A DNA stretch of 64,000 nt, from the NCBI RefSeq assembly GCF_003790525.1, contig NZ_CP033633.1. The stretch is one strand, 5' to 3'. This DNA is from Escherichia coli. GTDB taxonomy: Bacteria; Pseudomonadota; Gammaproteobacteria; Enterobacterales; Enterobacteriaceae. The notes under the pieces were generated by a model that made no database searches, was not told the DNA's origin, and was given only the letters and a program-made list of their open reading frames with translations. The translations under genes and the position numbers were made by a program. This document shows positions 60,364 to 64,000 of the stretch, piece after piece (within the stretch, counting starts at the first letter, position 1; each line of letters begins with the position of its first letter).

Positions 60364-61667
60364 GAGCCTGTTTAGGATTCTGTGTAAATGCCTTTTCTCA
60401 GAAGTGACCGTCCAGGCGGTCACCGAACTCGATAATAAAGCGGCTCATTGCCATTCGCCAGTCCTTCAACGGCATCGTCCATTTCTGGGACGCAGACTGG
60501 ATTGCCAGCCACACCACTTTTTTCACCGAGTCGTCTGTCGGGAACACTTTACGCTTTTTGATCGCATGGCGGATCACGCTGTTTAGCGACTCGATGGCAT
60601 TCGTCGTATAGATCACTTTGCGGATGTCCGTTGGATAAGCGAAGAACGTGGCAAGATTCGGCCAGTTAGCCTGCCAGCTTCGGCTTATCTGAGGATAGCG
60701 ACTGTCCCAGGCCGCAGCGAACGCTTCCAGTGCCTGCTGACCTGCCTCTTCCGTGGGAGCCTGATAAATCGCTTTCAGGTCGCGAGTGACGGCCTTGTAG
60801 TCCTTCCATGACACGAAGCGCAGGCTGTTGCGCACCATATGCACGATGCATAACTGGATGCGGGCCTTCGGATATACTGTGTTGATGGCATCCGGGAAGC
60901 CTTTCAGGCCATCCACACAGGCGATGAGGATATCGTTCAGACCGCGGTTTTTCAGTTCAGTCAGCACATTGAGCCAGAACTTCGCCCCTTCATTTTCGGC
61001 CAGCCACATACCCAGCAGTTCTTTCTGACCTTCGATATTGATGCCCAGTGCCAGGAACACCGATTTGTTGATGACGCGACTGTCCTGCCGAACTTTCAGG
61101 ACGATACAGTCAAGATAAACAATGGGGTAAACAGCATCCAGTGGTCTGTTTTGCCATTCTACAACCTGCTCCATCACGGCATCGGTGACCTTTGATATCA
61201 GTGCCGGTGAAACATCTGCGTCATACAGTTCTTTGAACGCAGTAGCTATCTCACGGGTGGTCATCCCTTTGGCATACAACGAGAGGATCTGGTTATCCAT
61301 CCCGGTAATACGGGTCTGATTTTTCTTTACCAGTTGTGGTTCGAAGGTACCGTCACGATCGCGCGGAGTACGCAGTTCCAGTGGACCGTCGCCTGTGATA
61401 ACGGTCTTTGTGTAATAACCGTTGCGGGAGTTAGCTCCTGGTCTGGACTGATTTTTCTCATACCCAAGATGGTGTGTCATCTCTGCATTGAGAGCGGCTT
61501 CAACGCTGAGCTTTTTCAGCAGCCGATCAAACTGACTGAGGTCTTCAGGGGTTTTGAGGTTTTTGGCCAGTTCGTTAGCCAGAGCCTGTAACTGTTTTTC
61601 GTCCATAAATTAACCTTCATTTGATGCTGGATTGAACATATCAAAATCAGGCAATTACACAAATCTA
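60364..61667 (-). mobile_element. IS256-family insertion sequence, boundaries from imperfect terminal inverted repeats
   Basis: Left end AGGATTCTGTGTAAATGCC (60364..) and right end GGCAATTACACAAATCT (..61666) are imperfect inverted repeats; single transposase gene fills the element. Confidence 0.55.
60398..61606 (-). CDS. IS256-family (mutator-type) transposase
   Basis: 402 aa; conserved IS256-family motifs including the DDE region (LIACVDGLKGFPDAI, IQLCIVHMVRNS). Confidence 0.85.
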   Translation of the reverse strand: MDEKQLQALANELAKNLKTPEDLSQFDRLLKKLSVEAALNAEMTHHLGYEKNQSRPGANSRNGYYTKTVITGDGPLELRTPRDRDGTFEPQLVKKNQTRITGMDNQILSLYAKGMTTREIATAFKELYDADVSPALISKVTDAVMEQVVEWQNRPLDAVYPIVYLDCIVLKVRQDSRVINKSVFLALGINIEGQKELLGMWLAENEGAKFWLNVLTELKNRGLNDILIACVDGLKGFPDAINTVYPKARIQLCIVHMVRNSLRFVSWKDYKAVTRDLKAIYQAPTEEAGQQALEAFAAAWDSRYPQISRSWQANWPNLATFFAYPTDIRKVIYTTNAIESLNSVIRHAIKKRKVFPTDDSVKKVVWLAIQSASQKWTMPLKDWRMAMSRFIIEFGDRLDGHF

Positions 61668-61946
61668 TGTACAGGCTCCTGTTTTGCGGTCCCTGTATAT
61701 GCCCATTTCTTTTTCCGTCTGTATTGCAGAACTGCGTAATAATCTGAAGGAGAACTCTTCCTGGCTGGTTGCTCTCTGTGATTTCATTTTTGCACGTTTC
61801 AGGCAGTGCTGTATCCGTCTCTGGATACAGATCCGATCATCTTCCTGCAGGTAGTTCAGCAGCAATTCCTGCCAGCGTGCAGCGGCTCTGCGCCATAATC
61901 CCCGCTGTTCGAGCTCTTCAGCTTTTTTATCAGTAATCATATTCAC
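61665..61946 (-). CDS. PerC-family transcriptional activator-like protein
   Basis: 93 aa; N-terminal motif AEELEQRGLWRRAAARWQEL resembles PerC/Pch proteins; its stop abuts the IS256-like right end. Confidence 0.5.
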   Translation of the reverse strand: MNMITDKKAEELEQRGLWRRAAARWQELLLNYLQEDDRICIQRRIQHCLKRAKMKSQRATSQEEFSFRLLRSSAIQTEKEMGIYRDRKTGACT

Positions 61947-61963
61947 CTCTGCTCTGGTCGGTC

Positions 61964-62764
61964 ATGCTTTCTTCCCGGTATGTTATAGTTATTAAGATAC
62001 TTTTGTCCCTGTTCTGTTCCGGAGTGAACATGATTTTTGTCTGTTCTGTTGTACTGGCTGACAGAGCATTCACCCTGCAGTTTGCCGGGAAAATGCTGTC
62101 CCTTTCTGCAGGAGATGTGCTTCTGATTGATGATACTGATCGTGAGGATTTTCAGCCTCATGCTGCGCATATCACTGAGGTGCGGCTGGATGAAAATATC
62201 ATCCGCAGATATCTGGAGAGTTGTGGCGGCAACCGGGAGGCCGACAACACGGTTTCTTCTGGTTTCATCAGAGTGGCCTTTGCTCATCCTGCGTTGTTGC
62301 GTGACGTTATGCATCATCTGAATTCGGGAGGATTTGTTCATCCCGGATTTTCCGAGCAGATGTTTTTTTCCTGCATTGCTGTCTTTGCATCAAAAAAAGG
62401 CTTTCTTCCTTTGTTGCTGGGCGGAATGCTTTCTGTGGCCGGGAGAGTGAGGCATATCATCTGTACTGACCTTTCACACCAGTGGAAGCTGCGGGATGTC
62501 AGCAGTCGTTTGTATATGAGTGAAAGTCAGCTGAAAAAGAAACTGAAGGAAGAAGGATGTTCGTTCACCGGAGTGCTTCTGGATGTGAGAATGGGCTATG
62601 CACGCCGTCTGTTACAGGCCCGTCTGCCGGTCAACAGGGTGGCCGCGCAGTGTGGTTATGTAAGCACATCTTATTTTATCTGCGTGTTCAGGGAATGTTT
62701 TGGCGTCACGCCTCACCGGATGCTGGCGCTTCAGGAGCACGGGCAGCATAAAAGTGAATGCTGA
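61964..62764 (+). CDS. AraC-family transcriptional regulator
   Basis: C-terminal double HTH typical of AraC/XylS (ARRLLQARLPVNRVAAQCGYVSTSYFICVFRECFGVTPH); start codon uncertain. Confidence 0.75.
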   Translation: MLSSRYVIVIKILLSLFCSGVNMIFVCSVVLADRAFTLQFAGKMLSLSAGDVLLIDDTDREDFQPHAAHITEVRLDENIIRRYLESCGGNREADNTVSSGFIRVAFAHPALLRDVMHHLNSGGFVHPGFSEQMFFSCIAVFASKKGFLPLLLGGMLSVAGRVRHIICTDLSHQWKLRDVSSRLYMSESQLKKKLKEEGCSFTGVLLDVRMGYARRLLQARLPVNRVAAQCGYVSTSYFICVFRECFGVTPHRMLALQEHGQHKSEC

Positions 62765-62939
62765 GTTTGAATTATTCTGAAGAACGGCGGGTATTTTATG
62801 GAAACGGCACATTTCCGTGTCTCTGTGGTCATTCCCGATTGCTGTTGACGCATCGCCACTCACCGGAAATGTGCCGGAATATTTTAATCGTTCTTCACCG
62901 TCTGTGAAGGTCCTGTGCTTACATTGCTGAGCGGAAAAT

Positions 62940-63119
62940 GGCCTCAATTTCCTCCTGTGTAGCCTGAATCGGGTTTGTCAGACCACATGCATCCTTCAGG
63001 GCATTAGCGGCCAGAACAGGGATATCCTCTTCTCTGACGTTCAGGGCTTTCAGACCTGTCGGGATATTCACTTTTCCGGCCAGTTCCCTGATTGCAGATA
63101 TACTGTCAGCGCCAGTGAT
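62940..63119 (-). pseudogene. 3' fragment of an iron-containing alcohol dehydrogenase gene
   Basis: Minus-strand translation [60 protein letters not shown] resembles Fe-ADH C-termini; truncated at the IS3-like element edge. Confidence 0.3.
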
Positions 63120-64000
63120 ATAAGACGGTAAATGGGGATGCGGACGATTTCCTGGACTCTCAGGAGATAAAACATGTTTACTGAAGAAGAAAAAATCCGC
63201 GCCATTGAGCTTTATTTCAAATATGGTAAGAAGCTGGCTCCCGTCGTACGCGAACTGGGCTACCCTTCGAAAAGAAATCTGCGGCGTTGGAGCCGCTCAT
63301 GGGAAGCAGGTGGTGGCGCAAAAGAATCCATTCGTCATAAGCACCGTTACTCCGATGAGCAAAAACAGGTTGCCGTTGAACATTATCTTAACCACGGCTG
63401 CTGCCTGGCGTTTACCAGCAGAGCCCTGGGTTATCCCTGCACTGATGTACTCGCTCGCTGGGTTAATGAACTTTATCCCGACAGACGACGTATATTTACC
63501 AGTAAGGCCAACCCGGTTGCGCCCTTTGAACCAGAAGTCAAACGTCAGGCTGTCATGGCACTCTGTACACGACAAGTATCAGCCAGTGAAATCGCCAGGC
63601 GTATTGGTGTCAGTCGTGCGGTATTGTATAAATGGAAAGATAAAATTATCGGCAACAGTGCTTACCAGACTATGCGTAAACATAACGAACCTTCCCTGGA
63701 GGCAGAACGCGATGCGTTGCGGGAGGAAGTCGCCCGACTGAATCAGGAAATACGCCGCCGGCAGATGGAGCTGGATATTCTGAAAAAGGCGGAGGAAATC
63801 ATAAAAAAAGACCCGGGCATCAGTATCAGTCACCTGAACAACAGAGAGAAAACGAAGATCGCTGATGCCCTGAGACAAACATATCCCCTGACAGAATTAC
63901 TGCATGTTCTGGGCCTTGCCCGTAGCAGTTATTTTTATCACCGGGCTGCACTGAAAGCCGGTGATAAATACGCCACGATACGTACGATGCTGACAGATAT
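63116..64000 (+). mobile_element. IS3-family-like insertion sequence, partial (continues beyond window)
   Basis: Starts near TGATATAAGACGG; contains transposase ORF with HTH, leucine-zipper-like region and an A7G slippery motif. Confidence 0.45.
63174..64000 (+). CDS. IS3-family-like transposase, N-terminal part (open to window end, absent from ORF track)
   Basis: Hand translation from ATG 63174: [39 protein letters not shown]...[16 protein letters not shown]...; AAAAAAAG at about 63803 is a candidate frameshift site; track ORFs 63205..63741 and 63297..63878 are other frames. Confidence 0.55.

Follow-up and report, generated by a model that had tools for sequence, protein, structure and literature searches.

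The window analysed here is a stretch of 64,000 nucleotides of Escherichia coli DNA (contig NZ_CP033633.1, RefSeq assembly GCF_003790525.1), and the locus in question lies close to its end. Two divergent regulatory genes, encoding a PerC-like and an AraC/XylS-family protein, are accompanied by the 3′ remnant of an iron alcohol dehydrogenase gene, and the whole segment is enclosed by two insertion sequences (ISs), IS1414 and an IS3-family element (Table 1). A previous reading of the sequence alone, hereafter the original prediction, had named the three genes, described them as boxed in by IS256-like and IS3-like elements, with truncation of the dehydrogenase gene, and regarded the two regulators as an orphaned pair left without its target operon. 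The gene identities were confirmed by Pfam and NCBIfam profile matches, and both boundary elements and the truncation were found as described. Overall, the observation held with corrections, while its interpretation was partly supported.

Table 1. Features of the regulator segment and its boundaries. Positions refer to the window unless a comparison locus (L number) is given.
Feature	Position	Strand	Size	Basis or remark
IS1414 (IS256 family), complete	60364-61678	minus	1315 bp	Left boundary
PerC-family gene	61665-61940	minus	91 codons in this copy	PF06069
Native (non-IS) segment	61679-63133		1455 bp	Between IS1414 and the IS3-family element; BLAST limits against L002, L012, L016 and L035
Divergent intergenic region	61941-62029		89 bp	Must hold both promoters; direct sequence reading
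AraC/XylS-family regulator gene, intact	62030-62764	plus	244 aa	HTH_18 and HTH_AraC
YiaY-type iron alcohol/L-threonine dehydrogenase 3′ remnant, pseudogene	62919-63133	minus		ADH_Fe_C
IS3-family element	63134-64000, continues past window end	plus		Right boundary
AIDA-type autotransporter gene	L003 13915-17412		3498 bp	IS91 3′ remnant before gene

Just 2 bases in the final 12.3 kb of the window differed from pPK8275-145kb (NZ_CP080166), a conjugative IncK2/Z plasmid of a chicken E. coli, and the transfer regions of the two were 96-99.7% identical. A repZ-type regulatory pseudoknot, detected as an Rfam match at 51524-51673, places the regulator segment just downstream of an IncI-complex replicon; it thus sits in the variable region of a conjugative plasmid. 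Nothing in its sequence is unusual: it is already annotated in RefSeq, and many near-identical copies exist.

The AraC-family protein carries the C-terminal double helix-turn-helix domain of its family (HTH_18, 60.9 bits; HTH_AraC, 54.6 bits, in two stretches). Its true start is the ATG at 62030 (MIFVCSVV), preceded by GGAG, and not position 61964; YdeO and every homologue share this start, which is also the one adopted in RefSeq. By far the best match was the NCBIfam YdeO model (NF007407; 206 bits, positions 1-230 of 253), and the protein shares 42% identity over 231 amino acids with YdeO of E. coli K-12. Since the score does not reach the equivalog cut-off of this model (348 bits), the protein is, as judged from its sequence, a paralogue within the YdeO subfamily, and neither YdeO itself nor a fimbrial regulator of the PerA/Rns type. 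Likeness to Rns, CsvR and ToxT was largely confined to the C-terminal DNA-binding half, and in the PDB the protein matched the DNA-binding domains of GadX, Rns and ToxT. Identity was 28% to AppY and 33% to EnvY (partial); lambdoid phages carry lone AraC cargo genes whose products are about 35% identical. The premise of the original prediction, by which fimbrial or secretion loci are the usual targets of PerC/AraC pairs, is therefore not supported for this protein.

We compared the araC gene of the window with ydeO and with two levels of plasmid homologues (75% and 62% identical), and obtained ratios of non-synonymous to synonymous substitution rates (dN/dS) of 0.19-0.21. These values indicate that this AraC family encodes a functional protein under purifying selection. 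Among plasmid matches of any identity (E <= 1e-20), 334 out of 365 cover at least 80% of the protein, and in plasmids with the allele of the window the AraC gene almost always has its full length. The araC gene and the perC-like gene are divergent and 89 bp apart. A consensus scan of the region for promoters and terminators gave counts not above those of shuffled sequence. It returned no plus-strand promoter-like site for araC and a single one for the perC-like gene (61965-61936, minus), which overlaps the ATG and is uninformative. An Rfam scan of 59-64 kb detected zero RNA families.

The PerC assignment, which the original prediction had allowed might fail in profile searches, passed them comfortably: the window protein matched PF06069 with 53.3 bits (E 3.3e-14) against a gathering cut-off of 22.6, the intact allele matched with 50.5 bits, and the identical gene is named 'PerC family transcriptional regulator' in RefSeq. 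Translation starts at an ATG (MITD) located 5 nt after a GAGGTG ribosome-binding site. The intact allele encodes 102 amino acids and was found in L002, L012, the phage-plasmid phi456 and copies without IS1414 at this site. The IS256-like element had been placed abutting the stop codon; it is indeed there, but IS1414 has removed the last 14 codons and supplies the end of the reading frame itself. Codons 89-102 are replaced by four IS1414-encoded codons (G-A-C-T) and a stop inside the IS end; native residues 1-87, including the conserved family core, are kept. Truncation is recurrent, with end points at residues 88, 64, 59, 58 and 32 across plasmids (five or more sites), and at least 80% of the protein is covered in at most 59 of about 144 close copies.

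Relatives of the PerC-like protein are few, with 54 cluster representatives at E <= 0.001 among 1.8 billion proteins. The closest diverged homologues (50-57% identity) are encoded on phage-plasmid-like contigs of about 91 kb, which also encode Phd/Fic and a homologue of the DNA polymerase III theta subunit. Identity to PchE of strain Sakai was 35%. In a tblastn search of the plasmid collection (E <= 0.01), none of the listed rows was recognisable as perC of the EAF plasmid of enteropathogenic E. coli (EPEC), and the weakest listed relatives, at 32-37% identity, lay on other plasmids. Two apparent variants at 74-77% identity (P0052 and P0053) were discarded, as they are frameshifted copies of the same 99%-identical DNA and not diverged alleles.

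An AlphaFold2 model of the intact 102-residue allele, built from a 26-sequence alignment, is all-alpha, with five helices, a predicted local distance difference test (pLDDT) score of 87 and no helix-turn-helix. Foldseek returned no PDB match to this model at E <= 0.001, the best matches being generic MIT or TPR-like helical bundles, and a sequence search of the PDB gave no relative at E <= 1. The NCBIfam model ANR_neg_reg (NF033650) was matched by 19 out of 26 PerC-family members, all below its 32-bit cut-off. The window protein scored 22 bits (E 1e-4), and the intact allele gave no match at E <= 0.01. In the alignment, the residues of the published ANR signature (A, E, A, W, W, R, C) coincide with the invariant core of the PerC family, and the first three helices of the two families appear to be homologous. 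The same overlap was noted in a 2025 paper, which describes a PerC-family protein that represses LEE1 instead of activating it (PMC11773190). Like Aar, Rnr and Cnr of the ANR family, PerC proteins are small and all-helical and share the signature pattern, but they are longer (about 90-100 amino acids versus less than 10 kDa) and have an extra C-terminal helical part. With 102 amino acids and five predicted helices, the PerC-like protein falls outside the ANR definition of at least 32 bits, less than 10 kDa and three helices. The likeness, although below threshold, is consistent and supports the recent suggestion that some 'PerC' proteins are anti-activators. It bears on the annotation of hundreds of genes and is the most interesting point of this locus.

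This likeness raises the idea of a feedback pair of the AggR/Aar type, in which the activator would drive the divergent perC-like gene and its product would inhibit the activator. Such a circuit would refine the function proposed below, and we regard it as doubtful. The divergent arrangement across a short intergenic region, the aligned signature with its 19 sub-threshold matches, and a predicted helical fold without a DNA-binding domain are all compatible with it, and so are the reports that ANR proteins bind AraC-family regulators and H-NS (PMC4983702, PMC5570504) and that the LEE1-repressing PerC-family protein may be ANR-like (PMC11773190). However, every ANR score stays below 32 bits, the intact allele lacks a match altogether, the PerC-like gene is truncated in most plasmids, and the pairing is conserved nowhere outside this allele.

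The dehydrogenase remnant retains about 70 codons and the stop, or some 18% of the gene, and its reading frame continues into the IS3-family element at its end. It matched the end of Pfam ADH_Fe_C (positions 145-194 of 194, E 9e-13) and of the NCBIfam L-threonine dehydrogenase (YiaY) model NF007363 (positions 320-383 of 383, E 9e-26), and 'L-threonine dehydrogenase' is among the RefSeq features listed under the match. A complete enzyme of about 383 amino acids would include the N-terminal nucleotide- and metal-binding parts, which this stub lacks. As chromosomal E. coli yiaY is just 76-78% identical at the nucleotide level, the stub derives from another source. Matches to its 70 amino acids in protein databases were all fragments or truncated calls of 41-119 amino acids, with no full-length relative among them; the longer ones proved to be fusions of this stub with IS sequence, or a metagenomic gene with no relation to it. 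The stub is dead.

At the left boundary, IS1414 (the RefSeq name of the element) ends in imperfect inverted repeats of 30 nt (60364-60393 and 61649-61678) and encodes a Mutator-family transposase of 402 amino acids (Pfam Transposase_mut, E 2.9e-120). It lacks a target-site duplication, being flanked by TGAGAATC and CTGTTTTG. Inside its transposase gene lies an intact open reading frame (ORF) for astA, the EAST1 heat-stable enterotoxin, with 38 codons (60778-60891, minus; translation MPSTQYIRRPASSYASCIWCATACASCHGRTTRPSLAT), which AMRFinder annotates in NZ_CP080166 as astA at 97.4% identity. This astA is a passenger of the boundary element and lies outside the regulator pair. At the right boundary, match limits in other genomes begin at 63134; the element is annotated as an IS3 family transposase, and as IS150-like in phage phi456. 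It joins the dehydrogenase stub to an IS91 remnant, as seen at its right end in L003, and not to more dehydrogenase sequence. Given the missing target-site duplication of IS1414 and the IS91 remnant at the far end of the IS3-family element, both junctions look like products of IS-mediated deletion or recombination rather than simple insertion.

The native segment occurs at approximately 99-100% identity on roughly 150-175 E. coli plasmids and on one P1-like phage-plasmid. By megablast, 70 plasmid records in PLSDB cover at least 80% of a 1.6-kb query, and among 5,426 complete E. coli genomes, 146 have matches to 80% or more of the native segment. In these complete genomes it was found on no E. 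coli chromosome, the listed matches being on plasmid-sized records, once matches of about 180 bp to chromosomal yiaY had been set aside. The AraC allele at 95% identity or more is present in 175 plasmid records. The carriers seen comprise IncI-complex (K2/Z), IncF and IncHI1B plasmids and the P1-like phage-plasmid phi456 (Punavirus). Among matches listed with a stated source, 12 of the 18 rows for the AraC allele came from poultry or retail meat.

Copies of the segment end at different points. In L016-L019 the native sequence is limited to the part corresponding to 61748-63055, L002, L013 and phi456 continue for 255 bp beyond the PerC-like gene, and L012 (NZ_CP027551) and L035 hold 1.3 kb more on that side. 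This additional 1.3 kb contains a small membrane-protein ORF and an intact gene for an MliC-type inhibitor of c-type lysozyme (NF010363, 157 bits versus a cut-off of 127; L012 7457-7795), which directly follows the PerC-like gene where erosion is least advanced and has been lost from the window. The ancestral block thus read: small membrane-protein ORF, MliC-type gene, perC-like gene, divergent ydeO-like araC and yiaY-like 3′ stub, and its ends were lost to differing extents among plasmids through IS1, IS3-family and IS1414 events. What the original prediction had called the edge of a decayed virulence or metabolic island is consequently a decayed remnant of a larger accessory block, as proposed, but it is set in a plasmid variable region downstream of the replicon. 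Hen lysozyme is a c-type enzyme, so the MliC-type inhibitor could matter for poultry hosts. A scan of GTDB species representatives with an AraC alignment, which used strict peptide patterns and is a weak negative, did not retrieve the ancestral locus; its sole match was an unrelated AraC domain from Bacillota (29%).

The small ORF has a homologue within the window, outside the segment. About 64 codons long, it lies at 57204-57398 (plus) beside a ProQ/FinO gene, with further homologues at L004 7578-7772 and L012 6901-7146. The encoded protein has one hydrophobic helix and a charged tail, and a terminator-like hairpin follows the ORF. In L004 it stands directly upstream of the AraC homologue with 75% identity. 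These positions suggest an old backbone order of replicon, ProQ/FinO gene, small ORF and araC, with mliC and the perC-like gene between the last two in the lineage of the window. We considered the small protein as a SafA-like partner of the regulator. On inspection it had no similarity to SafA, and its ORF has its own terminator-like hairpin; a safA-ydeO-like operon is not claimed.

The original prediction had proposed a search for intact homologous loci. Fuller copies of the locus were found, and none of them has a target operon attached. Beside the copies in PLSDB, the 5,426 complete E. coli genomes, the phage collection and the protein-context database, we detected no adjacent operon that could have been lost. 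The explanation that the regulators once controlled a neighbouring fimbrial, secretion or metabolic operon, later removed by IS activity, is decidedly unlikely in our view. It does account for a segment that is bounded by ISs on both sides and was clearly larger once. It also has a precedent in perABC of the EPEC EAF plasmid, where PerC and AraC genes occur together on a plasmid. However, the fullest copies add just the lysozyme-inhibitor gene and the small ORF on one side, with the stub of a housekeeping-type dehydrogenase on the other, and an intact locus is absent from every collection searched. The likeness to perABC (bfpTVW) consists of a PerC-family gene beside an AraC-family gene on an E. 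coli plasmid. In contrast to this co-directional three-gene operon with its PerA/Rns-type AraC protein, the genes here are divergent, a perB ORF is missing and the AraC protein is YdeO-like.

Among diverged relatives of the two regulators, the pairing named in the original prediction is not conserved. No AraC gene neighbours the PerC homologues at 50-57% identity, and the AraC homologues at 75% and 62% have no PerC neighbour. The former AraC homologue (L004, an IncFII-type plasmid) lies beside LysR, esterase and decarboxylase genes. The latter (L006-L008) lies 1.2 kb from a pair of fim-type recombinase genes and a chaperone-usher operon in three contexts, which speaks for a lost operon. In four regions of the Sakai genome (prophages Sp6 to Sp9), PchE was present and an AraC homologue was not. 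As a separate observation, the region 13546-15582 of L012 encodes a second AraC paralogue of the same subfamily (255 amino acids, 32% identical to the window protein), beside an OmpC-like porin gene.

For regulators of this kind, being an 'orphan' is the normal state, because their relatives act in trans and several of them are lone prophage cargo genes. The AraC homologues in lambdoid phages and appY, within prophage DLP12, share this habit of lone cargo. As no copy of the locus shows an adjacent operon either, the inference of a lost operon is not supported, and the view of the pair as having been deprived of its target gives way to that of regulators which most likely stand alone and act in trans, as is typical of the relatives (PMC10877973, PMC10057817).

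A second candidate target is the adhesin gene that lies nearby on several carriers. In pPK8275, an autotransporter gene of 3498 bp starts 1.6 kb past the window end, after the IS3-family element and the IS91 remnant. AIDA-type autotransporter genes are also present in L002, L012, L013 and L022. The published avian E. coli adhesin gene aatA has the same size, 3498 bp (PMC2944236). Besides IncK2/Z plasmids, two IncHI1B plasmids, an IncF plasmid and the P1-like replicon have aatA at a distance of 2-7 kb from the pair. In at least 16 plasmids the two fall within a single BLAST 'place', much more often than the background frequency of either would give. That the pair regulates aatA is nevertheless highly unlikely. 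The IS3-family element and the IS91 remnant lie between the two, as ISs do in every case, orientation (inverted in phi456) and spacing vary, and many plasmids have one without the other. Moreover, chromosomal aatA loci exist, whereas the pair is never chromosomal, and aatA was expressed in a K-12 strain lacking any additional regulator, driven by 100 bp of its own promoter (PMC2944236). The co-occurrence is explained by shared descent, and we take the linkage to reflect a cargo region of common ancestry and not regulation. AutA and AutR, published regulators beside an autotransporter gene of avian pathogenic E. coli, were considered as counterparts and rejected; they are described as LuxR/GerE-type and are unrelated.

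On balance, we think it probable that the segment is the IS-eroded core of a small accessory plasmid module, consisting of a stand-alone trans-acting YdeO-like regulator with a PerC-like tuner. The YdeO-like protein would act as a stand-alone activator in trans, not in the service of a lost neighbouring operon. As with YdeO, AppY, PatE and PsrA/PsrB, to which it is related, its probable binding sites are AT-rich promoters on the host chromosome, and the prime candidate target is the gadE/hdeAB acid-fitness network. The PerC-like protein, small and all-helical in prediction, with no DNA-binding fold and with a signature shared with ANR proteins, would most likely tune the output by protein-protein contact, either with the AraC-type regulator or with H-NS. 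We infer these targets and this contact mechanism, in contrast to the anatomy of the locus, from the relatives. The component under selection would be the trans-acting YdeO-type regulator, whereas the PerC/ANR-like helper would be dispensable and the dehydrogenase stub is dead.

YdeO of E. coli K-12 is an EvgA-controlled AraC/XylS activator of gadE and the acid-fitness island. The plasmid protein resembles it over its full length, belongs to the same length class and has the same N-terminal MxxVCSV start, but it is plasmid-borne, and a divergent perC-like gene lies upstream in place of safA, which is directly upstream of ydeO in K-12. YdeO, AppY, PatE and PsrA/PsrB are trans-acting regulators of the gadE/hdeAB acid-resistance network (PMC10877973, PMC10057817), and binding to the promoters of hdeA and gadE is described for PatE and PsrB (PMC10877973). 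Like the protein described here, PsrA, PsrB and PatE are AraC/XylS regulators carried as cargo on mobile elements, in their case prophages of enterohaemorrhagic E. coli (EHEC) O157:H7; they act in trans on gadE and hdeA. The psr genes are reported to be associated with Pch regulators of the PerC family (PMC10877973), the same two-family combination as in the window, although the carrier here is a plasmid or phage-plasmid and not a lambdoid prophage, and no type III effector genes lie nearby. AppY and EnvY (prophage DLP12 region of K-12) belong to the same AraC subfamily and are likewise lone genes on a mobile element, but they share lower identity with the window protein, as given above; pleiotropic effects of AppY include acid resistance (PMC10057817).

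A plasmid-borne hdeA-like acid chaperone gene was observed in L004 (9834-10094), 1.1 kb downstream of the AraC homologue with 75% identity. This adjacency fits an acid-resistance role of the regulator family, as a single example.

Several points weigh against the function proposed here. The proposed target genes are extrapolated from relatives that share 28-42% identity. The substitutions within the 99%-identical allele are too few to show selection, and the full-length retention of AraC is partly an ascertainment effect, AraC having been the search query. Members of the PerC family are unpredictable: PerC of EPEC activates LEE1, a homologue from a phage-inducible chromosomal island (PICI) represses it and others leave it unaffected (PMC11773190). 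On this plasmid, no LEE is known. Given its frequent truncation, the perC-like gene may simply be junk in these plasmids. A rival reading takes the whole segment as non-functional DNA hitch-hiking between active ISs on successful plasmids; in its favour are the dead dehydrogenase stub, the repeated truncation of the PerC-like gene, the existence of frameshifted AraC and PerC-like copies and the lack of statistical power to detect selection within the allele. We consider this very improbable, as dN/dS in the AraC family is about 0.2 even between deeply diverged members, the AraC gene keeps its whole length while its flanks erode independently in several lineages, and the ribosome-binding sites and start codons of both genes are good.

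If the YdeO-like regulator does act in trans as proposed, a conjugative plasmid common in poultry E. coli could reprogramme chromosomal stress or adhesion genes of any host that it enters, and the module would be a plasmid counterpart of the Psr/Pch regulators of EHEC prophages. A broader version is unlikely. In it, the YdeO-like activator, the PerC/ANR-like modulator, the MliC inhibitor and the nearby AatA would form a plasmid kit for colonising birds, the activator switching on host acid-fitness genes in the acidic proventriculus and gizzard, with the PerC-like protein as its ANR-type anti-activator. Were this the case, the PerC family would be recast as protein-binding modulators of AraC-type regulators or H-NS, instead of DNA-binding activators.

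Other features of the window were recorded outside the segment. Rfam matches included two sok antitoxin RNAs next to Hok/Gef genes (3652-3808 and 4372-4529) as well as a marginal match to AgrB antisense RNA at 374-462 (41.6 bits versus a gathering score of 40). An ORF for an IS91-family transposase lies at 57671-58846 (minus). Between it and IS1414 (59243-60197, plus) lie the 3′ end of an ABC-ATPase gene and, after it, an intact gene for a pentapeptide-repeat protein of 187 amino acids of the Qnr/McbG type. The product, which we take to be McbG-like, gave pentapeptide and Qnr-like profile matches. This stretch looks like the tail of a microcin-B17-type immunity/export operon whose upstream part was cut near the IS91-family element.

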